The notes under the pieces: model-generated
The model's database searches: none
Told to the model about the DNA's origin: nothing
The model's input: the letters and a program-made list of their open reading frames with translations, nothing else
Program-made: the position numbers and the translations under genes
Shown: positions 2,030 to 50,132 of the stretch, in pieces
How the letters are laid out: each line of letters opens with the position of its first letter
Position numbering within the stretch: the first letter of the stretch is position 1
From: Alphaproteobacteria bacterium
Lineage (GTDB): Bacteria; Pseudomonadota; Alphaproteobacteria; GCA-2731375
Direction of reading: 5' to 3'
DNA length: 64,000 bases
Assembly (NCBI GenBank): GCA_965216645.1
Contig: CBDCGJ010000070.1
Location: forward strand, 1-64,000

Positions 2030-2116
2030 TAGATGGCGCTAAATATCGACTAGACAATTTTTCCAATTATATATATAGCTATTGTACTAATTTTGGTTAA
2101 TTTTTTGATTATCTGA

Positions 2117-2686: not shown

Positions 2687-2923
2687 TCGTGAGGTACCGC
2701 GCCAATGCACGGATGTAAGATTTCGCCTTGAGGTATTGGATAATTCCCAACGCCGACAGTAGAGGGCGGATGTCGATTAAATAGGCGCACGAACAAGAGC
2801 CGACTGAACAGAATGGATCCGCTATCGTCTCTCTTCGTCAACGAATCTTGAATTCCCTGAGATCGACAATTTTCTACAATTCGGCTATTCTGATCTTCAA
2901 TTCGCGCATTTAGTATTGCCGGT

Positions 2924-3511: not shown

Positions 3512-3583
3512 AGGATTGGCCGTTATCTTCCGCCGCCGGTATCGCGGCAATCAACCTCAACCAACAAATGGATAGTCAGTATC

Positions 3584-9168: not shown

Positions 9169-9362
9169 AGGCCGACGCCCCCTCACAACAAAACCCGCGC
9201 CATCATGCCGTATGGCGGGCGGACAGGCAATCGATCGCACCTGGATGAAACTACGCCCCATTTCGCTCGTAAAAACGGCGTATTCGCCGTCACCCCAAGC
9301 ACATGCGTTTCCTGCTGCACGACCATGTTCAATCAACAGCCCGCCAGGTTATGATCGAGCCG

Positions 9363-10280
9363 ATGAAGAAGAGCTATTCGATCGGTATTCACGTACCCAG
9401 CGTTTCGGCCACCGGCCTCGCGGATGGCGCCGCCTATGCGGACTATTTCCGCCTGGTCGAGACGTTGGGTTTCGACGCCGTATGGGTGGAGGACCGAATC
9501 CTGCACCCGGCCCCCTTGGCGGATTCGCTAACTCTGTTGACCTGGGCCGCCGCGCATACCGAGCGCCTGGAGCTCGGCACGGCGGTCCTGGTCCTGAACC
9601 TGCGTCCGGCGCCGCTATTGGCGCGGCAGGTCGCGACCTTGCGGCATCTCGCCGGCGATCGGGTGACCTTGGGTGTGTCGCTGGGCGGGCGCGCCAACGA
9701 ATATGCTGCCCTGCGGCAGCCGATGGACAAGCGGGTCGGATTGTTTCGCGACGGTCTCGCGACCCTGCGCGCGCTGCTATCCGGTGACGAGATCACGCGG
9801 GACAGCACCTATTTCCCGCTTGACGGCGCCACCGTCCGCCCCGCCGGCCCCTTGCCGATCCTGATCGGCGGCTTGGCGCCGGCGGCGATCCGCCGCGCGG
9901 GGGAATTGGGCGACGGCTGGATCATGGGACCGTTCGGCGGATTGGAGGACATCGACAAGGGCCTTACGGAAGCCCGTGCCGGTGCCACCGCCGCCGGGAA
10001 GGTTCCGGACCAATTGCGTATCGGCCGGCTTCTTTATGTCGCCGTCGATCCCGACCGAGCCAAGGCGCAACGGGATATGACCGTCTTCCTTCACGGCTAT
10101 TACGGGAGCGACTTCGATGTCGACAAACATGCCATCATCGGTCCGGCGGCGGAGGTCGCGGATCGCCTGAAAGCACAGATGGACGCCGGTATCGGGACCC
10201 TGATGCTGGCCCCGCCGAATCTCGATCCGTCCTACATTCGCCGATTGGCCGACGAGGTTCTACCGGTCTTGCGCGGTTAG
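9363..10280 (+). CDS. LLM-class (luciferase-like) flavin-dependent oxidoreductase
   Basis: TIM-barrel LLM motifs (ETLGFDAVWVEDRIL...LGTAVLVLNLRPAPLLARQVATL...LGVSLGG). The start could be ATG 9351 or 9363. Confidence 0.7.
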   Translation: MKKSYSIGIHVPSVSATGLADGAAYADYFRLVETLGFDAVWVEDRILHPAPLADSLTLLTWAAAHTERLELGTAVLVLNLRPAPLLARQVATLRHLAGDRVTLGVSLGGRANEYAALRQPMDKRVGLFRDGLATLRALLSGDEITRDSTYFPLDGATVRPAGPLPILIGGLAPAAIRRAGELGDGWIMGPFGGLEDIDKGLTEARAGATAAGKVPDQLRIGRLLYVAVDPDRAKAQRDMTVFLHGYYGSDFDVDKHAIIGPAAEVADRLKAQMDAGIGTLMLAPPNLDPSYIRRLADEVLPVLRG

Positions 10281-26033: not shown

Positions 26034-26220
26034 ACTGACAACCCAAATCCTACGCAAACAGACGCCGGCCAAGCCGGCAAATTAGCGAATCAAGATATAC
26101 AATCCAATACTTGGTGGGAATTGTCCAATAACTATGTTTTTGGCAAAATTATTGTATTTCCCGTACTATTCCGACAAACGCGCCTACTGATGATTTGGCG
26201 GACTTGGAGATGGAAATGAA

Positions 26221-26480
26221 ATGACGCACGCCAATTGGTATTTCGATTTCATATCGCCCTTCGCCTATTTGCAGCTGCATCGTTTTGACAGATTGCCCGA
26301 CGATATAACCGTGACCATAAAACCCGTCCTATTCGCGGGTTTGTTGGAGCATTGGGGTCAACTGGGGCCGGCGGAAATCGAGCCGAAACGCCGTTTTGTC
26401 TACCGTTTCTTCAAATGGCGGGCGTCCCGGCGCGGGTTGCCTTTCCGCATGCCGCCGAGCCATCCTTTCAATCCCTGGCC
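26221..26480 (+). pseudogene. 2-hydroxychromene-2-carboxylate isomerase-like (DsbA-like) gene, apparently truncated
   Basis: The N-terminal ~87 aa, WYFDFISPFAYL...GLPFRMPPSHPFNPWPALRW, match the HCCA-isomerase/DsbA-like family from recall. The frame then degenerates, and there is no room for the ~110-aa remainder before the next gene at 26639. Confidence 0.4.
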
Positions 26481-26638
26481 GGCCCTGCGCTGGACATACT
26501 GCTGGATTTCACCGCTAATCCGAACTTGTTCGAGGATACGGAAATGCAACGCCTGTCGACCATGCCAAAGGGCCGTCAACAGCGGAAGTGACGGCACTGA
26601 ACTACGCATAGACGAAAATTCATATGGAGGAATACGAG

Positions 26639-27583
26639 ATGCGATTTGGCTTTTATTTGCCGACCCGGGGGCCAACGGCAACACGCGAAGATCTGGCCAA
26701 AATCGTCGGGCGGGCGGAAGCGCTGGGCTTCGATTCCGTGATGATCGCCGATCACATCGTCTTCCCGACGGAGATCGAGTCGAAATATCCCTACACGGTG
26801 ACCGGCGCCTTTCCCGGCCATGGCGACGCGCTGGAGCAGCTGGCGCTGATGGCCTTCATCGCGGGCAAGACGGAACGGCTGCGCCTCGTCAGCAGCATCA
26901 TGGTGATCCCCTACCGTAATCCGATCCTGACCGCCAAGGCGCTCGCCACCATCGACGTGCTGTCCGGCGGCCGGGTGACGGTCGGGGTCGGGGTCGGTTG
27001 GATGCGCGAGGAATTCGAAGCCCTCGATTCCCCCCCATTCGAAGCGCGCGGCGCCTCGACCGACGAATATCTCCGCATCTTCAAAAAACTTTGGACGGAC
27101 GAGGTCGTCGAACATGACGGCGAGCATTATAGTTTCAAAGCTTTACGCTGTGATCCGAAACCGATACAGAAACCGCACCCGCCGATCTGGATCGGCGGAC
27201 ACAGCCGCCCGGCGCTGCGCCGCACGGCTCGTCTCGGCGACGGCTGGCATCCGGTTGGCGCCAATGCGGCCGTGCCGTTGAAGCCCGACGAGCTGTCGCC
27301 GATGCTGAGCGAGTTGAAGCAATTGACGGAGGCTGAAGGACGGGACTTCGAAGCCCTGACCATCTCCTTCAAGGCGCCGATCTACGATCCGGGGGCGTCG
27401 TTGCCGGATGGCGAACGCCGCCCCTTCACGGGTCCGGCCGCTCAGGTATTGGAGGATGTCGAGACCTATCGCGGGCTCGGCATTTCCGAACTGATCTTCG
27501 ATTTCCGCAGCGACAGCGTCGAGGAAAGCCTGGCGCGTATGGACGAGTTCGCGGCGACAATCTTGCAGCCGTTGAGAGGATAA
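26639..27583 (+). CDS. LLM-class flavin/F420-dependent oxidoreductase
   Basis: MRFGFYLPTRGP...ALGFDSVMIADHIV...VTVGVGVGWMREEF; its stop lies 7 nt before the next gene. Confidence 0.7.
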   Translation: MRFGFYLPTRGPTATREDLAKIVGRAEALGFDSVMIADHIVFPTEIESKYPYTVTGAFPGHGDALEQLALMAFIAGKTERLRLVSSIMVIPYRNPILTAKALATIDVLSGGRVTVGVGVGWMREEFEALDSPPFEARGASTDEYLRIFKKLWTDEVVEHDGEHYSFKALRCDPKPIQKPHPPIWIGGHSRPALRRTARLGDGWHPVGANAAVPLKPDELSPMLSELKQLTEAEGRDFEALTISFKAPIYDPGASLPDGERRPFTGPAAQVLEDVETYRGLGISELIFDFRSDSVEESLARMDEFAATILQPLRG

Positions 27584-27589
27584 ACCCCG

Positions 27590-29011
27590 GTGGTTGCGAA
27601 CCGGGTCCAGATTGTCCGCGGCTATCTGAAATCCGGTGACGAACTGATTGCCGCCGGCGACTATGAGGGCGCGCAGGCTGCATTCGAGCGCGGCCTCGCC
27701 CAGTTTCCGGAAGCGCCGCGCCTGCATCTGCGACTCGGCCAACTGCATCTGCGGCACAACCGCTATGCCGACGCGGACCGCCATTTCCGCCGCGTCATCG
27801 AGACCGCGCCGCATACACCTTTCGGCTATCTCGGACGCGGCCGCGCCTTGGCCGGCCTCGGCGACCGGTCCGGCGCCGAAACCGTATTGACGGAAGGGCG
27901 GCGCCGCTTCCCGAAAGCCGCCAATTTCGACAAGTTGCTGGGGGATCTGCACGCCGCCAATGGTGAGTTCGATACGGCGATCGACTATTACGCCAGCGCC
28001 TTGGACAAAAACCCGGAGGATTTTTTCGGCTACCATGTCTTGAGTTCCTACTTAACGCGGTTGGGCCGCCGAAAGGAGGCGGACGCCGTTATTCATGCCA
28101 GAAACCGACAGGTCGAACTCTTCGTACTCCGGAACTGGCGTGAGATATTGGAGTTCCCGGAGGCTGCGGCGGACGACGATTTCTTTCAGCTCGGCGGCGA
28201 CTCGCTGAAAGCGGAGCAACTGCTGATGGAGATCGAAGCCCGCATCGGCGTCCATCTGCCGTTGGATGTCTTGCTGGACGCGCCGACGCCGCGACGCTTG
28301 GCCGCCAAGATCGATCCCATGGCGAAGCATGTGTTGCAGGATAGCGTGACCTTCAAGGATACGGGAAAACGCCCGGCTCTCATGCTTCTGCACAATCTGT
28401 CCGGCACGCTTATGCAGTACCGCGCGCTTTGCCAGTATCTGCATCCGAACCAGCCGGCGTTTGGATTACCGCTCCCCGGCTTCGCGCTCGAGAATGACGG
28501 CGACGACGGAAACGACCTCAGCATCGGCGCGCTGTCCGAGGCGCATCTCCGGATAATGACACGGATCGCGCCGCCGCCCTATGTCTTGTGCGGCCATTCT
28601 TATGCCGGTGTGATCGCCTTCGAACTGGCTTGTTGCTGCGCCGACGCGGGCATCTCCACAAAACTGGTTCTGTTGGACAGCTGGCCGCCCATTTCGGCGA
28701 CGGCCTGGCAAGAGGAGGAGGACGACGACGATTATTTGCGGAAAGTGAAACGGAAACTTACGCCCGCCGCAAAACGCTACCGCCCGCGAGAATTCGCCGG
28801 GGACACCCTGCTGATCACCGCCGACGAGCAGCCGGCAGCGCAACGCCGCGACACGATCGAGGGTTGGCGTCCATTACTGGCGGGACATCTGTCCGTGGAA
28901 ACCGTGGCCGGCAATCACACATCGCTCCTGTCCAGGCGGCACGCCAAGCACTGCGCCGAGGCGCTGGAACGCTATTTGTCCCGTTGGTCGGCCCCGCCGC
29001 CCGACACCTGA
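27590..29011 (+). CDS. TPR-repeat / peptidyl-carrier-protein / thioesterase tri-domain protein
   Basis: N-terminal TPR-like helices; FFQLGGDSLKAEQLLMEIEARIG is the phosphopantetheine attachment motif; GHSYAG (GxSxG), LLDSW and C-terminal AGNHTSLL define a TE-type alpha/beta-hydrolase domain. GTG start. Confidence 0.7.
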   Translation: MVANRVQIVRGYLKSGDELIAAGDYEGAQAAFERGLAQFPEAPRLHLRLGQLHLRHNRYADADRHFRRVIETAPHTPFGYLGRGRALAGLGDRSGAETVLTEGRRRFPKAANFDKLLGDLHAANGEFDTAIDYYASALDKNPEDFFGYHVLSSYLTRLGRRKEADAVIHARNRQVELFVLRNWREILEFPEAAADDDFFQLGGDSLKAEQLLMEIEARIGVHLPLDVLLDAPTPRRLAAKIDPMAKHVLQDSVTFKDTGKRPALMLLHNLSGTLMQYRALCQYLHPNQPAFGLPLPGFALENDGDDGNDLSIGALSEAHLRIMTRIAPPPYVLCGHSYAGVIAFELACCCADAGISTKLVLLDSWPPISATAWQEEEDDDDYLRKVKRKLTPAAKRYRPREFAGDTLLITADEQPAAQRRDTIEGWRPLLAGHLSVETVAGNHTSLLSRRHAKHCAEALERYLSRWSAPPPDT

Positions 29012-30441
29012 TCGCGTAGGCGTTGGCGCTGGATCTTGCCGGCGATCCCGCGCGGGACGGTTGGTATCCGGACAATCGAGGTGGGAACCTTGTAAGCGCT
29101 CAACCTGGTCCGGCAAAACCGTAGGATATCGATGTCCGCCAGGTCGGTCCCGGCCACCACGCAGGCGACCACTCGCTCCCCAAGTTTCGGATCCGGCAGG
29201 CCAAGCACGGCAACGTCGGCGATGTCCGGATGCCCGCGCAGCACCGCCTCGACTTCTTCCGGATTGACGTTGTTGCCGCCGGTAATGATCAGATCGCTGG
29301 CCCGGCCGCGGAGATGCAGATAACCCTCGTCGTCAAGCCGCGCCAGCTCCCCGGAATAGTACCAGCCGTCCCGGAAAAACTCGTGTCCCGTCGTGCCGGG
29401 ATCGGTAAACGCCGTGGCCATGCCGTCCATCCGGCAACGCAATCGGCCCGTGGCACCCGCCGGCAAGGGGCGATCTTCCTCGTCGACGATTTGAACCTCG
29501 ATACCGCCCGCCGGTCGGCCGACCGTATCCGCGCGATCGGCAATGTCGGCCGGTTGTAAGCAGGCGATAGTGCCGAAGCCGGAGGCGCCATATTCGTCAT
29601 AGAGATTGGCGTTGACCCGTTCGGCCAAAGCCCGCTTTTCCCGCCCCTGTAACGCCGAGCCGGTCAGCCATAGATATCGCAAGTCCGGCAGCAACGGCGC
29701 ACCCTCGCCAGCAATGTCGAGCAAGCTCCGCGCCTGAGTGGGGACAACGAAAATAGCGGTCGCCCGATGGCGCTCGATGGCCGCAACCAATTCCCGGCTG
29801 CGGTGAAGCGGCGGAAACAACACCACGGTATTGCCACTCAAAAGATGAAACAGGCAACAATTCCGCGTCGCCGTAAAAGCCATATGACCGGCGGACAAAT
29901 AGCGTTCGCCGTCGCCCCAACCCAAGGCCCGACGGGTAACGGCGTAGCGCGAGAGATATTGGCGATGGCTCAGCATCAGACCTTTTGGCCGACCGGTGGT
30001 ACCGGAGGTTACATTGATGACGAAAGGAACATCGTCGTCGAACTCGCTCGGCGCCGCCGCAGATTGGTCACGCAATATCCCTTCGTCGAAATCGATCCGG
30101 CGAACGCGGAACTGCCGGTCCGGCAAGTCGCAAAGCACGGCGGAAATCGCGAACTCATCGATCTGCGCGTCGATTTCCGCCGGTTGCGCGCGCCAGTCGA
30201 AGGCGATCAACGTAGCGCCCCGGCTGGCCAGCCCGACGATTGCAGCTAGATGTATAAAGTCGTCCTTCAAGCAAATGCCGACCCGGTCGCCACGCTCAAT
30301 TCCGTTGGAAGCCAAACAGCCGGTCGCGCGTCCAGCCAAGATCGACAGGTCCGCGAAATTCAGGCTCCGCTCCCGATCGCATAAGGCGGGATGGTCCGGG
30401 CGGGATGCTGCCCAATCCAGAATCTCCGTTGCGACAGACAT
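28972..30441 (-). CDS. class I adenylate-forming enzyme (AMP-dependent synthetase/ligase, stand-alone A-domain-like)
   Basis: TSGTTGRPKG (A3), YGASG (A5), GELARLDDEGYLHLRGRASDLIITGGNNVNPEEVE (A7/A8), final K (A10). Convergent and overlapping by 40 nt with the PCP-TE gene. Confidence 0.8.
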   Translation of the reverse strand: MSVATEILDWAASRPDHPALCDRERSLNFADLSILAGRATGCLASNGIERGDRVGICLKDDFIHLAAIVGLASRGATLIAFDWRAQPAEIDAQIDEFAISAVLCDLPDRQFRVRRIDFDEGILRDQSAAAPSEFDDDVPFVINVTSGTTGRPKGLMLSHRQYLSRYAVTRRALGWGDGERYLSAGHMAFTATRNCCLFHLLSGNTVVLFPPLHRSRELVAAIERHRATAIFVVPTQARSLLDIAGEGAPLLPDLRYLWLTGSALQGREKRALAERVNANLYDEYGASGFGTIACLQPADIADRADTVGRPAGGIEVQIVDEEDRPLPAGATGRLRCRMDGMATAFTDPGTTGHEFFRDGWYYSGELARLDDEGYLHLRGRASDLIITGGNNVNPEEVEAVLRGHPDIADVAVLGLPDPKLGERVVACVVAGTDLADIDILRFCRTRLSAYKVPTSIVRIPTVPRGIAGKIQRQRLRDQVSGGGADQRDK

Positions 30442-30464
30442 CGATTGCGGTCCGTTTCCTCGAA

Positions 30465-31964
30465 CTATCCGTAAACCAGCGTACCGTCTTCCAAATCCGC
30501 GACCGGCAGGGTGTCTTTCTCCGTGTCATAATCCTGGCTGAAGACCCATGGCTCCCGATCGCCCTGTTTCGGCAAGATGTGAATTTTGCGCATGATATAG
30601 CCGGCGTTGAAATTCTCTTCTTCCACAAACGGCTTGGCCGGCATGTCCCGGTCTTCGGGGCGCAGCTCCGGGGTCACGATTTGAACCCCCTTCTCGTCCA
30701 TATGGTTGAGCAGGCGGCAGACGAATCCGGACACCAGATCGGCCCGCATGGTCCAACTGGTGCGCAGATAGCCAAAGACATGGGCCAAATTCGGCACGCC
30801 CGAAAACATGATGCCGCGGTGGGCCCAGCGCTCGTGAAGCCGCAAGGGCTTGCCATCGATGACGATATCGACATCGCCCAAGACGGACATGTTGAAGCCG
30901 GTGGCGGTAATGATGATGTCGGCCGGCAAATCACGACCCGACTGCAGTTTGATACCGGTTTCGGTAAAGGTCTCGATCTGGTCGGTCACCACCGAGGCCT
31001 CGCCGGCCCGTATGCTCTTGAACAGGTCGCCGTCCGGCACCACAGCCAGTCGTTGGCGCCAGGGCCGATAGGTCGGCGTGAAATGCGGATCGATTTCCGC
31101 CGCGTCGCCCAGATGGGCACGCGCGCCGGCGATCAGATCGGCTTTCAAGGACTCGGGTTCCTCGAAGGAGCGGCGGGCGATCTCCTTCTGATCGTAGAGG
31201 ATCTTGCGCCGCGTGATGTCATGGATGATGGCCTTGTCGACCCCCATCTCGCGCAGCATGTCCGCCGTCTCGTTGCGGTTGGGTGCGGCGTAGAAATAGG
31301 TGGGGGAACGTTGCAACATCGTGATGTGGGCGCAGTCGGCCGCCATCGCCGGAATGATCGTTGCCGCCGTCGCGCCGGAGCCGATGACGACCACCTTCTT
31401 GTCCCGATAATCCAGATCCGCCGGCCAGTTCTGCGGATGAACGATGGGTCCGGCGAAGCGCTCCGCGCCCGGGAAGTCGGGCGTGTAACCTTCGCTATGG
31501 CGGTAATAGCCTTGGCACATCCACAGGAAATTCGCCGTCATCTCGCACGACCCGCCTTCCGCCAGGTCGACGGTCAAGCGCCAGCGCGCCTCATCGCTCG
31601 ACCAATCGGCCGCACGAACCTGATGGCGATAGCGGATGTGACGGCGGATGTCCTGCTCGTCCAAGGCTTCGTCAAGATATTTCAGGATCTCCTCGGCGAT
31701 CGCGATCGGCGGCCCGGACCAAGGCTTCCAGCTGAACCCGAAGGTAAACAGGTCGCTGTCGGAACGGATGCCGGGATATTTGTGGGTCCACCAGGTCCCG
31801 CCGAACGTTTCCTGCGTCTCCAACAACGCGAATGTCTTGTCCGGACAGCGCTGCCTCAGATGATAGGCGGCGTCGATGCCGGAGATTCCGGCGCCGACGA
31901 TCAGAACGTCGAAATGTTCGGCCTCGTCTTCCGTTTCCCGGACGGCGTCAGGCGCGGCATTCAT
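30465..31964 (-). CDS. flavin-containing / Baeyer-Villiger-type (class B) monooxygenase
   Basis: GAGISGI (FAD GxGxxG), FGGTWWTHKYPGIRSD (BVMO/FMO fingerprint region), a second Rossmann motif GSGATA. Confidence 0.75.
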   Translation of the reverse strand: MNAAPDAVRETEDEAEHFDVLIVGAGISGIDAAYHLRQRCPDKTFALLETQETFGGTWWTHKYPGIRSDSDLFTFGFSWKPWSGPPIAIAEEILKYLDEALDEQDIRRHIRYRHQVRAADWSSDEARWRLTVDLAEGGSCEMTANFLWMCQGYYRHSEGYTPDFPGAERFAGPIVHPQNWPADLDYRDKKVVVIGSGATAATIIPAMAADCAHITMLQRSPTYFYAAPNRNETADMLREMGVDKAIIHDITRRKILYDQKEIARRSFEEPESLKADLIAGARAHLGDAAEIDPHFTPTYRPWRQRLAVVPDGDLFKSIRAGEASVVTDQIETFTETGIKLQSGRDLPADIIITATGFNMSVLGDVDIVIDGKPLRLHERWAHRGIMFSGVPNLAHVFGYLRTSWTMRADLVSGFVCRLLNHMDEKGVQIVTPELRPEDRDMPAKPFVEEENFNAGYIMRKIHILPKQGDREPWVFSQDYDTEKDTLPVADLEDGTLVYG

Positions 31965-31976
31965 CGATGATCTCCC

Positions 31977-32924
31977 TCACGTCCCGGCGGCGGCGCGCAG
32001 GACCGCGGCCGCCTTGTCGTGGGCGGCGACGCTGCGTTCGCAACAGCGGGTATAATGCATGAAGCCATGCAGGACGCCGTCGATCGTTACGCTTTCAGCG
32101 GGCACGCCGGCGGCATCGAGCTTTTCCTTCATGGCCGGGCTGTTGTCATGTAACGGGTCCATTTCGGCCGCCAATAACAAGACCGGCGGCAGGCCGCTTA
32201 GATCGGCGCTTAGGGCCGCGATACGCGGGTCTTGCCAATCCTCCGCCCGGCCGAGATAGGATCCCCGGAAAAACTTGCGCAAGTCCGGCCCCAGGCCGAA
32301 TTCACCGCCGCCATAGAGCCGCATGGAGTCGCAGTCGTCGCCCAAGCCGTAATTGCCGTAGATCAGGATCAATTGTTTCAGGAAGCCGGGCCGGCGTTGC
32401 CGGCAATCCATCGCCACACCGAGCATGATCGACGCGCCGGCGCTGTCGCCGCCGACCGCGACCATGCCTAGATCGAGATCCTGTTCCGCCGCCGCGCCGG
32501 CTTCGAGCCAATCGATCACCGCCTGCACGTCGTCCAACGGCGTGGGGAACTTATGTTCCGGCGCCAAATGATAGTCTATGGCCAGCACCGCCCAGCCGGA
32601 ACGGCTGGCGAGTTGCCGGCAGACATTATCGTGGCTGTCCAGGTTCCCGTAGACGAAGCCACCGCCATGGCAATAGAGAAGCAACGGCAGGGTGCCGGTC
32701 GCTTCCGGCCGGTAAAGCCGAACGCCGATCGGGCCGGCCGGTGCGGCGACCTGAAAGTTGCCGACCGACGCCATCGCCGGCACGTCCTCGTTCCAATATT
32801 TCCGGCCGCGCAGATAATGTTCCCGCATTTCGCCGATCGTCTCCACCGACGGCACCGGTCCGGGACCGTTCTCGGCATTCTTCTCGGCGGCCATCTTCAT
32901 GCCCGGACACATGCTGGCGGTCAT
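31977..32924 (-). CDS. alpha/beta-hydrolase-fold esterase (HSL/arylesterase family)
   Basis: HGGGF oxyanion motif, GDSAGA nucleophile elbow, and DPLHD...GVLHGF for the Asp/His. Confidence 0.75.
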   Translation of the reverse strand: MTASMCPGMKMAAEKNAENGPGPVPSVETIGEMREHYLRGRKYWNEDVPAMASVGNFQVAAPAGPIGVRLYRPEATGTLPLLLYCHGGGFVYGNLDSHDNVCRQLASRSGWAVLAIDYHLAPEHKFPTPLDDVQAVIDWLEAGAAAEQDLDLGMVAVGGDSAGASIMLGVAMDCRQRRPGFLKQLILIYGNYGLGDDCDSMRLYGGGEFGLGPDLRKFFRGSYLGRAEDWQDPRIAALSADLSGLPPVLLLAAEMDPLHDNSPAMKEKLDAAGVPAESVTIDGVLHGFMHYTRCCERSVAAHDKAAAVLRAAAGT

Positions 32925-33767: not shown

Positions 33768-34079
33768 CGACGGGCCGTCCTGAGCGCGGCCGGTCCCGCG
33801 CGGCGAACCGGGGTTTCTTGTCAGGGCTGCAAATAATCGCCCCTTCCACCCGCGAAAACTGAACATTGTCCAACCGTCCGCGATCGCAAGCGTAACCAAA
33901 TTATCGATCGAAATTGGTCGATCCCCTTGATTTACGATTTCGAGAGAAAAGCGCTATTTCTTACCGATTCCGGCGGCTTATTAACCCTAAAGGGTCAGAC
34001 CCTTTGATTTCCGTCCGGACCGGATTTCAGGTCGGATTGGTGGCTGGAAACGGGATCAAGAGTCCAAGGAGAATCGGCA

Positions 34080-34127
34080 ACAACACTGACCTATGTTTCA
34101 CGTGAAACATAGGTCAGTGTTGTTGTC
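34080..34127. repeat. perfect 48-bp palindrome with no spacer (centre CACGTG)
   Basis: CAACAACACTGACCTATGTTTCAC|GTGAAACATAGGTCAGTGTTGTTG; sits in a lower-GC intergenic stretch between map and the IS element. Confidence 0.9.
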
Positions 34128-34360
34128 CTAGTTGCTCCGGAACGATGCGCGCCGGAGTTCCAATGGACATAGGTAGGGCAAAGTCGTAGCCCCCGTCGAC
34201 ACCGCATGTTTTAGATATTCATGCCAGCTCGCGCTAGGCACCGGCTCCTCCATACCATTGCACCGCCATCATCCCGGAATCGCGAGGGCGATGTCCGGGA
34301 TCATTTCGAACGCCGAGCCCGTGACGATCCCGGACATCGCCTGCGGCGATTCCGGGATGA

Positions 34361-35758
34361 TGGGATGGACCTTTCCCTCTTTCTTTGTCTCAAATGACGA
34401 CTTCTATGAGCCAGAGAGACAGATTTGAAAGGAGAAAGGCCCATGACGGAGATTAAATTGTTGAGCATCGATTTGGCAAAGAACATTTTTCACATTCACG
34501 GGACCGATGGGGCGGGCGAGACGGTGTTGGAGAAGAAACTGCGCCGCGCCGCTTTGAAGCGTTATCTGGCGGCCTTGCCGCCCTGTCGCATCGCCATGGA
34601 GAGCTGCGGCGGGGCGAACTATTGGGGCCGCTATTGCCAATCACTGGGCCATGAGGTGGTGCTGATCCATCCGCGCCGGGTGGCGATGTTTTTGGGCGCG
34701 CATAAGAGCGATACGCGGGACGCCCGCGCCATCACCACCGCGGCCAGGCAGCCGGACACACGGTTTATCCCGGTGAAGACGATGACGCAGCAGGACCTGG
34801 GCAGCCTCTTGCGCCTGCGCGAGGGCCTGCTCGGCCAGCGCACCGAGACGGTCAACCGGCTGCGCGGCCTGTTGGCCGAATACGGCCATGTCTACCCCAA
34901 AGGCCGGGCCCGCTTCTGCCGCCAGCTGCCGCTTTGGCTGGCCGAGCTCGAACTCGCTCCGGCGCTCCTGCGCGGCCTGGAAATGCAGGCACTGATGCTG
35001 CTCGAGATCGAGGCTCAGATCCGCGAACTCAACGGCCTGATCAAGGCTCAGCTGAAGGCCGACGAGCGCGCCCCGTGGCTGCTTTCGATCCCCGGCATCG
35101 GCCCCTTGACCGCCGCCGCCCTCATCGCCGCCGTCGACGATCCCGGCCTCTATGCCTCGGCCCGCATGTTCGCCGCCTGGCTCGGTCTGGTGCCCAGACA
35201 GCACGGCACCGGCGGGCGCACCCGATTGTTGCGCATCACCAAACGCGGCAACGCCCTGATCCGCAAATGGCTGGTCCAGGGCGCGCACAGCCTGATCACC
35301 GTCGCCGGCCGCCAGCAACAGCCGCGCAACCGGCTCGAGGCCTTCATCATGCGCAAGCGCGCCGAAAACCTCAATCGCAACGTCCTCGCCGTCGCCGTCG
35401 CCAACCGACTGGCCCGCATCGCCTGGGCCTGCCTGAGCAAACAAACCAGCTTCAATCCCGCCGGCTGAAGCTGACCACCGCCACGCAACCGAAACCACGA
35501 ACGAAACGCAAAAGACCAGCAAAACACAGCAGAAAAGGACAAACCCCATTCACCGCGAGAAGAAGACATGGCAGGACCGAGACCCGGGTCAGGACGGAGC
35601 GTCATCGACCAAAAAAGGTCGTCGGGATGATTGTACCGACCCGGGCCGCGATCGACCCATTCCGTCCAGGGCAACAAAACCCGCAAACAGGACGAATACA
35701 TGAGCGTGGGTCAAAGCCACAGTTTCTTCTTGCAAATCCGGAAAGGTCCATACATGAC
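34361..35758 (+). mobile_element. IS110-family insertion sequence, copy A (~1.4 kb), inserted after a CCGGGATGA REP-like hairpin
   Basis: Boundaries come from comparing the three copies and from an uninterrupted paralogous target at 51200-51215 (GATTCCGGGATGAC|GAGAAT). No terminal inverted repeats; the right end is ...GGTCCATACATGAC. Confidence 0.7.
34443..35468 (+). CDS. IS110-family transposase (DEDD-type)
   Basis: 341 aa; MTEIKLLSIDLAKNIFHIHG and ...IPGIGPLTAAALIAAVDDPGLY match the IS110/IS621 transposase family. AGGAG RBS. Confidence 0.85.
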   Translation: MTEIKLLSIDLAKNIFHIHGTDGAGETVLEKKLRRAALKRYLAALPPCRIAMESCGGANYWGRYCQSLGHEVVLIHPRRVAMFLGAHKSDTRDARAITTAARQPDTRFIPVKTMTQQDLGSLLRLREGLLGQRTETVNRLRGLLAEYGHVYPKGRARFCRQLPLWLAELELAPALLRGLEMQALMLLEIEAQIRELNGLIKAQLKADERAPWLLSIPGIGPLTAAALIAAVDDPGLYASARMFAAWLGLVPRQHGTGGRTRLLRITKRGNALIRKWLVQGAHSLITVAGRQQQPRNRLEAFIMRKRAENLNRNVLAVAVANRLARIAWACLSKQTSFNPAG

Positions 35759-35941: not shown

Positions 35942-38263
35942 CTACTCGACCGGTGCCGGTAGCTTTTTCGGCTTCGCTTTCTTTGCGGTCGATTTGCCTT
36001 CGAGATAGGCGAAGGTGAGCTTCTTGTCCTCGACGCCGACCATGACTTTGCCGCCCTTGGCGAGCTTGCCGAAGAGCAGTTCGTCGGCCAGCGGTTTCTT
36101 GACCTCTTCCTGGATCAAGCGGGCCAGCGGGCGGGCGCCGTTGGTCTTGTCGTAGCCCTTCTCCGCCAACCAGGCCTTGGCCTCGTCGGTCAGTTCGATC
36201 TCGACCTTGCGTTCGGCCAGTTGATCGGCCAGCTCGACGACGAACTTGTCCACCACCTTGGCGACGACCCGGGGATCGAGATAGCTGAAGGGAATGACCG
36301 CGTCGAGCCGGTTGCGGAATTCCGGCGTGAACAGGCGTTTGATCGCCTCCTCGTCCTCGCCTTCCCGGCTCTCCCGACTGAAGCCGATCGCCGCCTTGGC
36401 CATTTCCTGGGCCCCGGCATTGGTGGTCATGATCAACACCACATTGCGGAAATCCACATGCTTACCGTTATGGTCGGTCAGCTTGCCATAGTCCATCACC
36501 TGCAACAGGATGTTGAACAGGTCGGGATGGGCCTTCTCGATCTCGTCCAGCAGCAGCACCGCGTGGGGATGCTGGTCGATGGCGTCGGTCAGCATGCCGC
36601 CCTGGTCGAAACCGACATAGCCGGGCGGGGCGCCGATCAGGCGCGACACCGTATGTCGCTCCATATATTCCGACATATCGAAGCGGACCAGCTCCATGCC
36701 CATGATCCGGGCCAACTGCCGGGCCACTTCGGTCTTGCCGACACCGGTGGGGCCGGAGAAAAGATAGCTGCCGATCGGTTTCTCGCCTTCGCGCAGGCCG
36801 GCCCGCGACATCTTGATCGCCGTCGATAGGGCCTCGATGGCGTCGTCCTGACCGTAGACCACCTCGCGTAGATCCTCCGACAGGCTCTTCAGATTGGCCT
36901 TGTCGTCCTTCGACACGGATTTCGGTGGAATGCGGGCGATCTTGGCGACCACGGCCTCAACTTCCTTGACCCCGATGGTCCGCCGGCGTTGGCGCTCCGG
37001 CACCAGCATCTGGGCCGCGCCGACCTCATCGATGACGTCGATCGCCTTGTCGGGCAGCTTGCGGTCGTTGATGTATTTCGCCGCCAACTCGACCGAGGCT
37101 TTGATCGCCCCCTTGGTGTAGCGGATCTTGTGATAATCCTCGTAATAGGGCTTCAGCCCCATCATGATTTTGATCGCGTCGGAAACCGAGGGTTCGTTGA
37201 TGTCGATCTTCTGGAAGCGGCGCAGCAGGGCCCGGTCCTTCTCGAAGTAACCGCGGTATTCCTTATAGGTCGTGCTGCCCATGCAGCGGATGGAGCCGCT
37301 GGCGAGCGCCGGCTTCAGCATGTTGGACGCATCCATGGCGCCGCCGGAGGTGGCGCCGGCGCCGATTACCGTGTGGATTTCGTCGATGAAGAGGATGGCG
37401 TTGTCATGATTCTCCAACTCTTGGATGACGCCCTTCAGCCGCTCCTCGAAGTCGCCGCGATAGCGGGTGCCGGCCAAAAGCGTGCCCATGTCGAGGGCGA
37501 AGATGGTGCTCTCCTTCAACACTTCCGGCACCTCGCCGAGCACGATGCGCCGCGCCAGTCCCTCGGCGATGGCGGTCTTGCCGACGCCCGGATCGCCGAC
37601 GAAAAGCGGATTGTTCTTCTGCCGCCGGCAGAGTACCTGGATGGTCCGTTCCAATTCCAGACCGCGGCCGATCAATGGGTCGACCCGGCCTTCGCGCGCC
37701 TTCTCGTTCAGGTTGACGCAATAGGCCGAAAGCGCCTCGCCCTCGGGCGCGACCGTGGCTTCCTCGCCCTCCTCCTCCTCGTCGGCGCCGCGGACCGGCC
37801 GGTATTCGGACTTGCCGTCCGATTTGGCGACGCCATGGGAGATGAAGCTGACGGCGTCGAGCCGGGTCATCCCCTGCTCCTGCAGGAAATAGACGGCATG
37901 GCTCTCCCGCTCCGAAAACAGCGCGACCAGCACATTGGCGCCCGTGACATTCTCCCGCCCGGATGATTGCACATGGTAGACCGCGCGCTGGATCACGCGC
38001 TGAAATCCGGCCGTCGGCTTGGCGTCTTCGTTGCTGTCGCCGGGGACGGTCAGCGCCGCGAGTTCGTTGTCGAGATAGTTGCCCAGCTGTTGGCGCAACT
38101 GCTCGATATCGATCTCGCAGGCCTGCAGCACATTCTCGGCATCGTGATCGTCGATCAAGGCCAAGAGCAGATGTTCGAGGGTAGCATATTCATGCCGCCG
38201 GTCGTTCGCTTCCTTCAGCGCCCGATGCAGACTTTGTTCGAGTTCGGTGGCGAATGAGGGCAC
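35942..38263 (-). CDS. clpA: ATP-dependent Clp protease ATP-binding subunit ClpA
   Basis: Two AAA+ modules ([30 protein letters not shown]). A GTG start at 38263 gives [16 protein letters not shown]... with GGAGAAGG RBS, and overlaps the clpS stop by 1 nt. Confidence 0.9.
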
Positions 38264-38265
38264 TA

Positions 38266-38607
38266 TTCCTTCTCCAAAGTACATTGCAACGGGTGTTGAT
38301 GCTTACGCGCAAAATCGATGGTCTGCATGACCTTGGTCTCGGCCACGTCATAGGTATAGATGCCGCAGACGCCGACCCCGCGCTGATGGACATGCAGCAT
38401 GATCTGCACCGCCTCATCGGAATTCTTGTGAAAGAATCGCTGCAGGACGTCGACGACAAACTCCATCGGCGTGTAATCGTCGTTCAACATTAGAACACGG
38501 TACATGGACGGTTTCTTGGTCTTGGTGCGCGTCTGTGTGACGACACCGGTTCCGCTGTCACCGTTGTCCGTGTCGTTGTCGCTCATCGTGATCGACAGTC
38601 TGATCAT
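38266..38607 (-). CDS. clpS: ATP-dependent Clp protease adaptor ClpS
   Basis: [25 protein letters not shown]...[14 protein letters not shown] is the canonical ClpS core. Confidence 0.85.
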
Positions 38608-38798
38608 ACCATGTCTCGATACGGTCCCTCATAATAAGGACGAAATTGTGGTGATTGGAAGGGGAATTCTCCCCATCACGGTTAATGTGACGAGGCGGAT
38701 TTCACCATATCCATTTCGGCATACGAAAAAGGGCGCCAACCGGATGTTGGCGCCCTCCATCGATTTTTCAAGCCGAAATTTCGGCAGAACTGTTGCCT

Positions 38799-39296
38799 TT
38801 AGGCCGCGGCCTTGGACATGGTCTCGACCGTCTTGCTGACCTGTCCGTTCACCGGCTTGGCAACATTTTCGGCCAATTCCTTGGTCATCTTGCCGATTTT
38901 CTCGCCCTGCGCGACCCAGTTCTCGACCCGCGTCTTGACGTGATCGTTCTGGATCTCCATCGCTTCCTTCAGGGTGCCGGCGGCGGCCATGGCCTGGGCG
39001 GCTTTCACGTTAGCGTCGAAGGTGGACTTGCCGTAGGCCATCCACTCGGCGGCCATGGCTTCCATGCCCTTGGTGTAGACCGTGGCCACTTCCTTCATGA
39101 CCTCGACGTTTTCCTGATTAAATGCCGCCAAGTCGTCGTAATTAAACGCGGTTTTCTGCCACTGAGCGTTGGCGTCGCCCCACATTTTTTCGTAGCTTTC
39201 GGTGCTGGCGGCCCAGAAAGATTGCCAAGCTTCCTTATTCGCGTTCATGGCCTCTTCGACCGGGTTCGCCTTCGATTGAGTCTTCTTCGTCATCAC
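38799..39296 (-). CDS. phasin-family (PHA-granule-associated) protein
   Basis: 165 aa, Ala/Lys/Glu-rich amphipathic helices with a phasin-like N-terminal pattern. Confidence 0.65.
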   Translation of the reverse strand: MMTKKTQSKANPVEEAMNANKEAWQSFWAASTESYEKMWGDANAQWQKTAFNYDDLAAFNQENVEVMKEVATVYTKGMEAMAAEWMAYGKSTFDANVKAAQAMAAAGTLKEAMEIQNDHVKTRVENWVAQGEKIGKMTKELAENVAKPVNGQVSKTVETMSKAAA

Positions 39297-39655
39297 AAAA
39301 CCTTTCCACTCGTTCCGCCGGATCGCCGACGATTTTGCTGGCTGTTCGCGGTCAAACCTTGACCGTTTCCGAACCGTTATCCCGTATTCCGCAGTGCGTC
39401 ATATGAATTTGTGCACCGCAATATCGTTAAACATAATGATGGCGTTCCCGAAGTCAATGGATTTTTTTGTGCACTGCACAAAAAATTTTTGCGCATGCAC
39501 ATTCAGACAACATTAACCCAGTTTTGCTAGGAAAGTTGAAGCCGGTGCTTGTCTAATATTATGATGGTAGAGATTCGGGTATCGGAGACATTGGGTTGGA
39601 TATACCGAGAATCGCCATAGAGCGGTCGAATCAACTTGTATCGAGTAGCGGGAAG

Positions 39656-40912
39656 ATGCTGAAAAACAGACTCCACCGAATTTCCATCCCCATCGTATTC
39701 GGCTTGTTTGCGGGTTACGCCTTCGGCGCGCAAGCCGCGTTGAAACCGCGCTATGCCGGATTCGTTATGGAGGAGAATTCCAGTTACGTCTTGTTCGACA
39801 AAGGCGCGACGCTCCGCAACCACCCGGCCTCCCTGACCAAGATCATGACTCTCTACCTTCTGTTCGAAGCGATCGAGGTCGGTCGCATGAAGCTCACCTC
39901 GAAGCTGAAGGTATCCAAACATGCGGCGAGCCAACCGCCGTCGAAAATCGGCGTGGTTGCCGGGACGACGATCACGGCGGAGCAGGCGATTAAGGCGCTG
40001 GTGACGAAATCCGCCAACGATGTCGCCGTGGTGATCGCGGAAAACCTGGCGAAAACCGAGCAGAACTTCGCCCGGCTCATGACCAAACGCGCCAGGGTCA
40101 TCGGCATGAACCGCACGACCTTCAAAAACGCCTCCGGCCTACATGACGACAAGCAATTGTCGACCGCCCGGGACATGGCCCGTTTGACGAAGATCTTGCG
40201 CCTGCGCTTTCGCAAGTATTATCACTACTTCTCGACCCGTTCCTTCACCTATCGCGGCCGCACCTTCGGCAATCACAACAATCTGCTCGGCAGCTATCGC
40301 GGCATGGACGGTGTCAAAACCGGCTATACGCGTAAGTCCGGCTACAATCTGGTCTCGGCAGTGGAGCGGAATGGCGTCCGGCTTATCGGCGTCGTCTTCG
40401 GCGGAAGCTCGGCCGGCGCCCGGGATCAGGAAATGGCCCGGATGTTGAACCAAGCGTTCAAGAAGATCAAAACCGTGCCGAAGTCGAAACTGAAGGCGCC
40501 GCAATCCTTCTACCGGGTCGGCAAACCGCGCCTGCGCTTCCGTGGCCTGCCGGCGCCGCGCCAGCGACCCGGCAAGAACCGCGGCAACCCCACGGCCGCG
40601 ATCGAAAAACCGAAGGCGAGACCGGCGGCGATCGGCGGCGGCGGCAGCGATGCCGATTGGGCGGTCCAAATCGGCGCCTACACCCGCTATACCAGCGCGC
40701 GGCGTCGCGTGTCGGAAGTCACCGATAGCCTGGGCTCGGGCGATTCATCCGTGCGCAGCGACATCGATAAGATTACGACAGGCGGCGGCACCATATTTCG
40801 GGCCCGGTTTGTCGACTTGACGGAACGCGAAGCGGAATCCCTGTGCGAGGAACTAAAAGGCAAGGGCATCAAATGCCTCATCCTCGATCCGGAGAAACAA
40901 GACCCGCTTTAA
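39656..40912 (+). CDS. serine-type D-alanyl-D-alanine carboxypeptidase (S11) with a C-terminal SPOR domain
   Basis: Signal peptide; SLTKIM (SxxK), SAND (SxN) and KTG motifs; the C-terminal AVQIGAYTRYTSARRR...IFRARFVDLTEREAESLCEEL is SPOR-like. ATG at 39656. Confidence 0.75.
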   Translation: MLKNRLHRISIPIVFGLFAGYAFGAQAALKPRYAGFVMEENSSYVLFDKGATLRNHPASLTKIMTLYLLFEAIEVGRMKLTSKLKVSKHAASQPPSKIGVVAGTTITAEQAIKALVTKSANDVAVVIAENLAKTEQNFARLMTKRARVIGMNRTTFKNASGLHDDKQLSTARDMARLTKILRLRFRKYYHYFSTRSFTYRGRTFGNHNNLLGSYRGMDGVKTGYTRKSGYNLVSAVERNGVRLIGVVFGGSSAGARDQEMARMLNQAFKKIKTVPKSKLKAPQSFYRVGKPRLRFRGLPAPRQRPGKNRGNPTAAIEKPKARPAAIGGGGSDADWAVQIGAYTRYTSARRRVSEVTDSLGSGDSSVRSDIDKITTGGGTIFRARFVDLTEREAESLCEELKGKGIKCLILDPEKQDPL

Positions 40913-48473: not shown

Positions 48474-48735
48474 ATCGCATCCTCACCCGCGGCCCCAGGC
48501 CTGGCAAATCACGGCTGGGTGACGAATGCTTGACCGCGTCACCGCCGGCGGTCATAGCTTAGAGCATATATCTACCAGGCTGCCGAAAAAGTCGACACCG
48601 GCCCAATTTCTTTCAGTGTCATGCCGGAAACGGCGAAGCCGTTATCCGGTATCTCGGGCAGGATAGAGCGTCGTTTCGACAGCTTGCTCCATTCTACTCA
48701 AGATCCCGGATCGCGCTACGCTTGCCCGGGATGAT

Positions 48736-50132
48736 GGGATGGACCTTTCCCGCTTTCTATTCCTCAATGGACGGCTTCTAAGAGCCAGTGAGGTGGATTT
48801 GAAAGGAGAAAGGCCCATGACGGAGATTAGTTTGTTGAGCATCGATTTGGCAAAGAACATTTTTCACATTCACGGGACCGATGGGGCGGGCGAGACGGTG
48901 TTGGAGAAGAAACTGCGCCGCGCCGCTTTGAAGCGTTATCTGGCGGCCTTGCCGCCCTGTCGCATCGCCATGGAGAGCTGCGGCGGGGCGAACTATTGGG
49001 GCCGCTATTGCCAATCACTGGGCCATGAGGTGGTGCTGATCCATCCGCGCCGGGTGGCGATGTTTTTGGGCGCGCATAAGAGCGATACGCGGGACGCCCG
49101 CGCCATCACCACCGCGGCCAGGCAGCCGGACACACGGTTTATCCCGGTGAAGACGATGACGCAGCAGGACCTGGGCAGCCTCTTGCGCCTGCGCGAGGGC
49201 CTGCTCGGCCAGCGCACCGAGACGGTCAACCGGCTGCGCGGCCTGTTGGCCGAATACGGCCATGTCTACCCCAAAGGCCGGGCCCGCTTCTGCCGCCAGC
49301 TGCCGCTTTGGCTGGCCGAGCTCGAACTCGCTCCGGCGCTCCTGCGCGGCCTGGAAATGCAGGCACTGATGCTGCTCGAGATCGAGGCTCAGATCCGCGA
49401 ACTCGACGGCCTGATCAAGGCTCAGCTGAAGGCCGACGAGCGCGCCCCGTGGCTGCTTTCGATCCCCGGCATCGGCCCCTTGACCGCCGCCGCCCTCATC
49501 GCCGCCGTCGACGATCCCGGCCTCTATGCCTCGGCCCGCATGTTCGCCGCCTGGCTCGGTCTGGTGCCCAGACAGCACGGCACCGGCGGGCGCACCCGAT
49601 TGTTGCGCATCACCAAACGCGGCAACGCCCTGATCCGCAAATGGCTGGTCCAGGGCGCGCACAGCCTGATCACCGTCGCCGGCCGCCAGCAACAGCCGCG
49701 CAACCGGCTCGAGGCCTTCATCATGCGCAAGCGCGCCGAAAACCTCAATCGCAACGTCCTCGCCGTCGCCGTCGCCAACCGACTGGCCCGCATCGCCTGG
49801 GCCTGCCTGAGCAAACAAACCAGCTTCAATCCCGCCGGCTGAAGCTGACCACCGCCACGCAACCGAAACCACGAACGAAACGCAAAAGACCAGCAAAACA
49901 CAGCAGAAAAGGACAAACCCCATTCACCGCGAGAAGAAGACATGGCAGGACCGAGACCCGGGTCAGGACGGAGCGTCATCGACCAAAAAAGGTCGTCGGG
50001 ATGATTGTACCGACCCGGGCCGCGATCGACCCATTCCGTCCAGGGCAACAAAACCCGCAAACAGGACGAATACATGAGCGTGGGTCAAAGCCACAGTTTC
50101 TTCTTGCAAATCCGGAAAGGTCCATACATGAC
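48736..50132 (+). mobile_element. IS110-family IS, copy B (full length), inserted after a CCCGGGATGA REP-like motif
   Basis: Near-identical to copy A over the transposase (one N/D difference seen) and ~85-90% identical over the 5' UTR; the right end ...CATACATGAC lies at 50128-50132. Confidence 0.7.
48817..49842 (+). CDS. IS110-family transposase
   Basis: 341 aa, MTEISLLSIDLAKNIFHIHG...; the longer track ORF has an unsupported 5' extension. Confidence 0.85.
   Translation: MTEISLLSIDLAKNIFHIHGTDGAGETVLEKKLRRAALKRYLAALPPCRIAMESCGGANYWGRYCQSLGHEVVLIHPRRVAMFLGAHKSDTRDARAITTAARQPDTRFIPVKTMTQQDLGSLLRLREGLLGQRTETVNRLRGLLAEYGHVYPKGRARFCRQLPLWLAELELAPALLRGLEMQALMLLEIEAQIRELDGLIKAQLKADERAPWLLSIPGIGPLTAAALIAAVDDPGLYASARMFAAWLGLVPRQHGTGGRTRLLRITKRGNALIRKWLVQGAHSLITVAGRQQQPRNRLEAFIMRKRAENLNRNVLAVAVANRLARIAWACLSKQTSFNPAG

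Follow-up and report, generated by a model that had tools for sequence, protein, structure and literature searches.

The stretch of DNA analysed here, referred to below as the window, comprises positions 1 to 64,000 of contig CBDCGJ010000070.1 (assembly GCA_965216645.1), from an alphaproteobacterium of the GCA-2731375 lineage. Near its middle lie five closely packed genes, encoding a luciferase-like monooxygenase (LLM)-class oxidoreductase, a protein in which tetratricopeptide repeats (TPR) are fused to a peptidyl carrier protein (PCP) and a thioesterase (TE), a stand-alone adenylate-forming ligase, a Baeyer-Villiger monooxygenase (BVMO), and an esterase. They form two tight operons, LLM to TPR-PCP-TE on the plus strand and esterase to BVMO to ligase on the minus strand, which converge with overlapping 3′ ends. 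We tentatively propose that the core of this cluster is a two-gene, carrier-protein-dependent module for acyl activation and transfer, made up of the ligase and the TPR-PCP-TE protein. As far as our searches reach, the fused architecture and its convergent pairing with a ligase are new, the underlying gene neighbourhood being recurrent and uncharacterised.

The TPR-PCP-TE protein consists of 473 residues, to which Pfam assigns TPR (residues 11-145), PP-binding (179-239), and Thioesterase (264-383) matches. Its carrier domain has the attributes of PF00550, a four-helix bundle with a conserved serine at the beginning of helix 2, in the motif (L)GG(D/H)S(L); the motif reads FFQLGGDSL, Ser205 is the predicted site of phosphopantetheine attachment, and the helices in the AlphaFold model are H205-219, 227-230, and 234-240. 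The thioesterase domain has the α/β-hydrolase fold and Ser(Cys)-Asp-His triad of the type I thioesterases (PF00975). The triad is composed of Ser337 (GHSYAG, 28598-28600), Asp363 (LLDS, 28676-28678), and His443 (GNHTS, 28916-28918), all aligned with those of relatives, and 26 residues separate the nucleophile from the Asp, compared to about 27 in PF00975. Judging from the sequence, the catalytic residues of both domains are intact. The lid of the thioesterase is short, the Asp and His being 80 residues apart versus 97-130 in seven related proteins, and includes an acidic run, EEEDDDD (375-381), which is modelled with low confidence. Overall, the model (mean pLDDT 78.5) consists of a TPR solenoid, a small helical bundle, and an α/β-hydrolase domain. 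The TPR part possesses ten helices (H2-H157) and matches the TPR region of O-GlcNAc transferase in fold. The PCP-TE half is closest by sequence to the PCP-TE didomain of EntF, which the model also matches in fold. Likewise among the best fold matches are the corresponding didomains of AB3403, ObiF1, and SulM, along with the Vlm2 and Pks13 TE domains.

The first-pass annotation, which was made from the sequence alone, could not place this architecture in a known family, and neither could we. Its 90% cluster has no other member, and no relative exceeds about 38% identity. Among 5.8 billion proteins, a word-indexed search returned nothing above 32% identity and no match listing TPR, PP-binding, and Thioesterase together. 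When the PCP-TE half was run with HMMER against 1.84 billion representatives, the best 150 matches were exclusively terminal PCP-TE regions of giant nonribosomal peptide synthetases (NRPSs), with 28-44% identity. These searches rule out a close orthologue, while analogous architectures with lower scores may exist. In the literature we found no description of a TPR-PCP-TE system, nor of PCP-TE together with a coenzyme A (CoA)-ligase-like enzyme. Two distant PCP-TE matches (P0002 and P0003) occur in a different, glycosyltransferase-rich setting. The locus L002 also contains a phosphopantetheinyl transferase (PPTase) and part of a ligase, a suggestive combination that nevertheless lacks synteny with the window. 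The protein does not qualify as an NRPS termination module (C-A-PCP-TE), because it lacks both the condensation and the adenylation domain: PF00668 was found neither in the five cluster proteins nor in the other scanned open reading frames (ORFs) of the window, and no AMP-binding domain is present in the TPR-PCP-TE polypeptide.

The ligase shows the Pfam domains of the ANL superfamily together with motifs A3 (the P-loop, TSGTTGRPKG), A8 (GR..D, with Arg380/Asp383), and A10 (PxxxxGK, with Lys469), while A7 deviates (Asp365Glu). Its best matches in the PDB are FadD5, FadD13, feruloyl-CoA synthetase, and MenE, that is, fatty-acyl, feruloyl, and succinylbenzoyl-CoA ligases. Other listed matches are aryl-acid-AMP ligases (EntE, PchD, salicylate-AMP ligase) and NRPS A domains, and no fatty acyl-AMP ligase (FAAL) is among the best. 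The fold is predicted to be fatty-acyl/aryl-CoA-ligase-like and not that of an NRPS amino-acid A domain. Several family assignments were considered and rejected. FAALs are marked by a specific insertion in the N-terminal domain (PMC11837247), and the window ligase has no extra segment relative to FACL13/FadD13 (query 27-480, chain 44-512). Membership of the Dlt/Alm type was dismissed on family scores. The exosortase A-associated cassette consists of a ligase, an acyl carrier protein (ACP), and hydrolases 1 and 2, and is represented by TIGR03098, TIGR03100, and TIGR03101; the window ligase scores 173 bits with TIGR03098 against a cutoff of 592, and neither the window TE nor the TEs of locus L006, which is discussed below, match TIGR03100 or TIGR03101. 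Like the fusion protein, the ligase is a singleton at 90%, yet it has many homologues at 35-47% identity.

The neighbourhoods of these homologues link the ligase to the carrier protein. We collected 160 ligase-family loci, 80 from GTDB genomes (scanned with an eight-sequence ligase alignment) and 80 from metagenomes, and scanned their six-frame ORFs with hidden Markov models for PCP and TE and with the window LLM, BVMO, and esterase. In the clade with at least 40% identity (40-47%), which is composed of Stellaceae metagenome-assembled genomes (MAGs) and soil metagenomes, every locus with upstream DNA has, directly before the ligase gene or genes, a PCP gene together with one or two TE genes. 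The PCP gene is itself preceded by the gene of a 276-aa TPR protein, the stop of which overlaps the PCP start, or abuts a TPR-GT41 fusion; several of these loci contain a PPTase of the Sfp/HetI type. More distant ligases (35-37% identity), from a gammaproteobacterial MAG (L009) and two metagenome contigs (L120 and L125), adjoin a fused PCP-TE didomain. Among ligases of 31% identity or less, the same scans revealed PCPs only inside NRPS genes, in two loci, and four further loci have a TE-like ORF at a distance of 0-7 kb. In a neighbour-joining tree the window ligase pairs with that of L003, and this pair is sister to the PCP-associated L009 plus the Stellaceae clade. Compared with the stand-alone PCPs of L004 and L006, that of the window shows 38-40% identity. 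Most relatives have a Cys as TE nucleophile (GVCGG, GHCAG); the window protein and a few others have a Ser. In none of the 160 loci is a TPR domain fused to PCP-TE.

From L004-L012, L089-L096, L009, L120, and L125 we define a PCP/TE-associated ligase neighbourhood as one in which genes for a PCP and a TE-fold protein lie no more than about 3 kb from a ligase of this clade, and the window contains such an arrangement. Because ligases of this family, and not distant acyl-CoA ligases, repeatedly adjoin PCP/TE genes, the adjacency of ligase and PCP-TE is more than chance. The combination of TPR, PCP, TE, and ligase is a recurrent, uncharacterised functional neighbourhood, and the window protein joins counterparts of three of these components in a single polypeptide. 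This recurrence and the fusion in the window constitute gene-fusion evidence that the ligase serves this carrier, and the earlier suggestion of an adenylating enzyme working with the carrier protein gains from the presence of its relatives in operons with PCP, TE, and TPR genes elsewhere.

In the module as we envisage it, the ligase would adenylate a carboxylic acid and attach it as a thioester to the phosphopantetheine group on Ser205 of the PCP. The TE, acting in cis through Ser337/Asp363/His443, would take over the acyl group and off-load it either to water or to the hydroxyl or amine of an acceptor held by the TPR domain. Of these, we infer that transfer to an acceptor is more likely than plain hydrolysis, because TPR domains are protein-docking modules, the lid is short and open, and the relatives use Cys-type TEs beside TPR-bearing GT41 enzymes. 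The acid would most plausibly be supplied from a ketone by the BVMO and esterase, which are encoded in the same operon as the ligase, the flux running from ketone to ester to acid plus alcohol. As for the LLM, its translation would be coupled to that of the carrier protein, but it is probably a redox enzyme of general function that was recruited through its position, not a dedicated partner.

A number of observations weigh against this proposal. The A7 motif of the ligase (consensus Y-x-[ST]-G-D) is YYSGE: Glu365 occupies the position of an Asp that is present in all 95 aligned relatives and binds ribose in ANL enzymes, and activity is therefore not assured. No homologue of a PPTase, the enzyme that would phosphopantetheinylate the PCP, was found in the window. 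The nearest single ligase homologue, L003 (40% identity), has neither PCP nor TE within 7.7 kb, and both are also absent from about half of the wider ligase family with adequate flanks. Only six alignment columns emerged that separate PCP-associated from other ligases, and the window ligase agrees with the PCP-associated consensus at three of them, which favours neither side. The window TE is only 20-30% identical to the TEs of the relatives and the TPR domain shows no specific similarity; on this comparison the fusion is a parallel to the TPR/PCP/TE neighbourhood without demonstrable orthology. In most relatives the ligase and PCP-TE genes point the same way, and in the window they converge. 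Finally, homologues of the BVMO or of the Abhydrolase_3 esterase occur in none of the 160 loci, and an LLM in only one, where it is distant (L114).

Some of these points also fit the main rival reading, in which two unrelated units lie back to back, an explanation that we regard as unlikely but serious. The minus-strand operon would then be an ordinary catabolic one for the sub-terminal oxidation of ketones, with the BVMO forming an ester, the esterase splitting it, and the ligase, as an acyl-CoA synthetase, delivering the acid to β-oxidation. The LLM and an orphan TPR-PCP-TE protein would be separate, with a carrier that is either charged by a different enzyme or never charged. The two sets of genes do lie on opposite strands, the route from BVMO and esterase to a fatty acid is textbook, and neither these two enzymes nor the LLM accompany the PCP module elsewhere, L114 excepted; the lack of a PCP near L003 is of the same kind. 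The solved structures that best match the ligase are CoA ligases in every case, and the enzyme does not have the FAAL-type insertion that marks the best-known CoA-independent loaders (PMC11837247). Its NCBIfam matches, too, are acyl-CoA ligase models, but none of these reaches its cutoff, and linkage of the ligase family with PCP/TE in at least three separate lineages and two architectures makes chance adjacency unlikely.

We consider it very improbable that the TPR-PCP-TE gene, the ligase gene, or both are decaying, non-functional remnants of a larger NRPS-like locus. Both frames are full length, with G+C contents at third codon positions (GC3) of 0.75 and 0.72; the start of the TPR-PCP-TE gene has a good ribosome-binding site; the catalytic residues of PCP and TE and the P-loop, A8, and A10 of the ligase are intact; and the domains are confidently folded in the model. 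These features have to be set against the singleton status of the fusion protein, the A7 substitution, the shortened lid, and the proximity of an active IS110 element. Decay could also account for the lack of PPTase, glycosyltransferase, and deacetylase partners nearby, unlike in the relatives: tblastn of the window with the Stellaceae-type TPR-GT41 proteins, the 290-aa PuuE/deacetylase-like protein, and the PPTase gave nothing.

The Stellaceae-type locus was seen in conserved form in L004, L006, L008, L010, L089, L091, and L095. Besides a PCP and a TPR-methyltransferase, it encodes two or three TPR-GT41 (OGT/NGT-like) glycosyltransferases, one or two each of Cys-type TEs (GVCGG) and ligases, and an Sfp/HetI-type PPTase. 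The 290-aa protein resembling PuuE and polysaccharide deacetylases is 83-94% identical between loci. The whole looks like a macromolecule-modification system, and there is no curated family for its TE proteins. In two other loci of the ligase family, a DAO-FAO_M-GCV_T gene (dimethylglycine/sarcosine-dehydrogenase-like) lies a few kilobases from the ligase (L003, 10742-13168; L125, 4932-7382), which could point to substrates of the N-methyl amino acid or betaine type but may also be a coincidence.

By analogy, one could suppose that the TPR-PCP-TE/ligase pair is a compact representative of a hitherto unstudied class of NRPS-like machine which acylates a macromolecule, either a protein or a protein-linked glycan, and does not build a small molecule. 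The target would be held by the fused TPR domain, and the TE with its short lid would pass on to it the acyl group carried by the PCP. We offer this as a long shot, on the grounds that the corresponding parts in the Stellaceae relatives sit among TPR-GT41 glycosyltransferases, a TPR-methyltransferase, and a deacetylase-like enzyme.

The features of the cluster are collected in Table 1. Scans of the cluster proteins with Pfam and NCBIfam confirmed all five domain calls of the first-pass annotation at their coordinates, and the genes have coding-type GC3 throughout (0.72-0.79). The LLM ORF opens at 26624, but the start adopted here agrees with the database entry P0287. Only 6 nt separate the LLM stop from the GTG start of the TPR-PCP-TE gene, with GAGAGGA just 5′ of the start. 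On the minus strand the gaps are 12 nt (esterase to BVMO) and 23 nt (BVMO to ligase), and Shine-Dalgarno-like sequences precede the starts. The close coupling of LLM and TPR-PCP-TE genes and the 3′-end overlap had both been noted in the first-pass annotation; in the TPR-PCP-TE protein and the ligase alike, the overlap is confined to the tail, which is not conserved. Scans of the cluster for promoters and terminators revealed nothing above shuffled expectation. This includes the σ70-like sites 5′ of the LLM gene, at 26140-26169 (+) and 26177-26148 (-), and no consensus promoter was called 5′ of the esterase gene. No riboswitch or other Rfam family was found around the cluster, so that neither operon is preceded by a riboswitch. 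An ORF opposite the BVMO gene (30405..31970, +) matches no family and was discarded as a shadow ORF.

Table 1. Genes, protein domains, and intergenic regions of the cluster
Feature	Coordinates	Strand	Evidence and remarks
LLM-class flavin/deazaflavin oxidoreductase, TIGR03619 family	26639..27583	+	314 aa; Bac_luciferase E 6.5e-51
TPR domain of TPR-PCP-TE fusion, residues 1-170, about 5 repeats	27590..28099	+	TPR_16, TPR_14, TPR_2, and others, E 1e-18 to 1e-21
PCP domain of fusion, residues 171-250	28100..28339	+	PP-binding E 7e-14; Ser205 at 28202-28204
Type I thioesterase domain of fusion, residues 251-473	28340..29011	+	Thioesterase E 6e-15
Stand-alone class I adenylate-forming enzyme, fatty-acyl/aryl-CoA-ligase-like	28972..30441	-	489 aa; AMP-binding E 1.5e-55, AMP-binding_C
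Convergent 3′-end overlap of TPR-PCP-TE and ligase genes, 40 nt	28972..29011		Sequence; no terminator-like site between
Type I Baeyer-Villiger monooxygenase	30465..31964	-	499 aa; Pfam/NCBIfam scans, PDB matches, fingerprints
Hormone-sensitive-lipase-family esterase, first gene of minus-strand operon	31977..32924	-	315 aa; Abhydrolase_3 E 1e-54
Divergent intergenic region between esterase and methionine aminopeptidase genes; putative promoter region of esterase-BVMO-ligase operon	32925..33020		Gene layout
Divergent intergenic region 5′ of LLM gene, 566 nt; putative promoter region of LLM/TPR-PCP-TE operon	26073..26638		σ70-like sites, not above shuffled expectation; no Rfam family

The LLM scores 246 bits with TIGR03619, above the cutoff of 166.9, and members of this family are predicted to depend on F420; no F420-biosynthesis gene was seen in the 64-kb window. 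With the natural-product LLM family that includes MupA and Atu3671 (TIGR04020) it reaches 64.5 bits, the cutoff being 244.45, and assignment to that family was rejected. Homologues with 65-76% identity number in the thousands and come from Alphaproteobacteria, Rokubacteria, and Methylomirabilota, among others. Three of their contexts were inspected and all are unrelated to the cluster: two homologues follow an oligopeptide ABC transporter and one is beside an unrelated flavoprotein. This last (L169) was considered as an orthologue of the window BVMO and rejected, since only the dinucleotide-binding motif aligns. With so conserved a protein adjoining a partner that has no relatives, it is unlikely that the LLM is dedicated to the TPR-PCP-TE protein. 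Elsewhere in the window there are two further LLM-class genes and one flavin-reductase-domain gene (9303-10280, 59305-60303, and 632-1762, all on the plus strand). The genome apparently contains many LLM enzymes, so that finding one beside the carrier protein carries less weight as an argument.

The BVMO, which we take to be a member of the EthA-like short subgroup, carries in its translation the fingerprints GGTWWTHKYPGIRSD and FAGPIVHPQNWP as well as VGAGISG and IGSGATA. It matches PAMO, STMO, CHMO, and OTEMO in the PDB (E 1e-28 to 1e-34) and is a type I BVMO as defined by two Rossmann motifs flanking [A/G]GxWxxxx[F/Y]P[G/M]xxxD and FxGxxxHxxxW[P/D] (PMC6304351). Homologues with 48-52% identity are found in Pseudomonas aeruginosa and Phenylobacterium, in unrelated contexts. 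The translated esterase gene contains CHGGGF, GGDSAGA, EMDPLHD, and LHGF, that is, the HGGG and GDSAG motifs and the Asp and His of the triad that characterize the hormone-sensitive-lipase family; its NCBIfam scores with Aes (239 bits) and LipP1 (236 bits) are below the cutoffs, and no equivalog was reached. That a BVMO and an esterase form a classical pair for sub-terminal oxidation, converting a ketone to an ester and this to acid plus alcohol, as the first-pass annotation held, agrees with the literature, for example on Thalassolituus oleivorans (PMC6304351). A search of the plasmid collection gave no syntenic match to the cluster, only scattered BVMO and esterase homologues. On plasmid p1 of Cupriavidus sp. 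KK10 (L172, 4182-6783), a distant BVMO-like gene (26% identity) is located directly 5′ of an esterase homologue (44%), a pairing which fits the well-known ketone-oxidation pair; the record has no annotation for this stretch.

A pathway of five enzymes is plausible solely from the local operon structure. In its strictest form, all five would work on one carrier-bound substrate: a keto-acid on the PCP would be oxidised while tethered by the BVMO, the LLM, or both, and cleaved and released by the esterase and TE. The operon-like packing of the five genes and the 3′ overlap of the two operons are consistent with this, and BVMOs and LLM-type oxygenases acting on ACP- or PCP-tethered intermediates are known from trans-AT polyketide synthase (PKS) and mupirocin-type pathways. 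We nevertheless find this version improbable, given that the LLM falls outside TIGR04020 and has 72-76% identical counterparts in peptide-transporter and other unrelated contexts, that close BVMO homologues are likewise in unrelated surroundings, and that BVMO and esterase are missing from all 160 related loci. For the single pathway that the first-pass annotation envisaged, a five-gene synteny is not supported by these comparisons: synteny fails for three of the genes and persists for the ligase/PCP-TE pair.

The same annotation had noted a likeness to luminescence, with LuxE-type activation, LuxD-type transfer, and a LuxAB-type LLM combined in a fatty-aldehyde/luciferase system. The analogy is a loose one of enzyme classes (AMP-forming enzyme, α/β-hydrolase, LLM), which resemble those of bacterial lux only superficially, and we give it next to no chance. 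There is no LuxC-type reductase in the window, and the LuxC, LuxD, and LuxE Pfam families are unmatched by the cluster proteins and their neighbours in the window. The ligase belongs to AMP-binding and not to LuxE, the TE to PF00975 and not to LuxD (Acyl_transf_2), and the LLM to a different subfamily, TIGR03619, which is widespread in soil bacteria.

The remainder of the window resembles ordinary chromosome, with genes for ClpS/ClpA, methionine aminopeptidase, phasin, RND efflux, and methylcrotonyl-CoA carboxylase. An insertion sequence of the IS110 family (DEDD_Tnp_IS110 plus Transposase_20) is present in three copies (34352-35468, 48726-49842, and 50005-50814), which are 100% identical over 300-nt blocks. 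The second and third are nearly adjacent, one of them being truncated, and the first is found some 0.6 kb past the gene for methionine aminopeptidase (map) that flanks the cluster. Between map and this copy there is a long, near-perfect hairpin (34055-34141). Rfam scores it as a miRNA-like stem-loop on either strand, without any gathering cutoff being reached; a terminator, a REP-like element, and a target site of IS110 are candidate identities. Two patches of low G+C content, 2001-4000 (0.51) and 38001-40000 (0.54), stand out against about 0.61 elsewhere; the former holds two ORFs without a Pfam match, and the latter spans the ClpS/phasin intergenic area.

On their own the BVMO, esterase, and LLM are ordinary enzymes. 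Should the ligase load the fused carrier, the pair would be the smallest self-contained form, in two genes, of a recurrent module that has no characterised member. It would unite an activating enzyme, a carrier, a release or transfer enzyme, and a built-in docking domain, and would offer an entry point to the larger TPR/PCP/TE/ligase loci of soil alphaproteobacteria. For genome mining, it would mean that an annotation as "acyl-CoA synthetase" can conceal a CoA-ligase-like enzyme of a carrier-protein system, and that gene-fusion evidence can reveal the link.

Among known systems, the PCP-TE portions of NRPS termination modules (EntF, AB3403, ObiF1, SulM) share with the window protein the GGxS motif, the Ser-Asp-His layout, and an EntF-like LLD(S/T)WPP strand after the Asp. 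Compared to the EntF-type didomain, the window protein lacks the condensation and adenylation domains and has an N-terminal TPR domain, a shorter lid, and a separate, CoA-ligase-like loader. Enzymes with the TE fold that pass a carrier-bound acyl group to an acceptor other than water include the TE of Pks13 and the Cys-type α/β-hydrolase shuttles SyrC and CmaE. The Pks13 TE is among the fold matches of the window protein, and the Cys nucleophile typical of the shuttles is found in the relatives of its TE; the likeness is one of modelled fold. The BVMO and esterase pair described in PMC6304351 has the same direct adjacency of a type I BVMO and a carboxylesterase and the same chemistry, but that of the window shares an operon with a ligase from a carrier-associated family, and no alkane hydroxylase or alcohol dehydrogenase is encoded in the cluster.

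Stand-alone FAALs with cognate ACPs, such as JamA/JamB, provide a precedent for a free-standing adenylating enzyme that loads a nearby carrier without CoA (reviewed in PMC11837247). The logic of loader and carrier is shared, whereas the window ligase is without the FAAL insertion and no PKS or NRPS follows. The Stellaceae and soil loci with TPR, PCP, Cys-type TE, and ligase also differ from the window in containing TPR-GT41 proteins, a TPR-methyltransferase, a PuuE/deacetylase-like protein, and often a PPTase, and in having neither BVMO, esterase, nor a close LLM. In these and in L009, L120, and L125 the parts are separate genes or fused only as PCP-TE, are co-directional, and mostly use a Cys TE; in the window they are fused, convergent with the ligase, and equipped with a Ser TE. 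The component set is nevertheless the same in all of them, with ligases 35-47% and PCPs 38-40% identical to those of the window.

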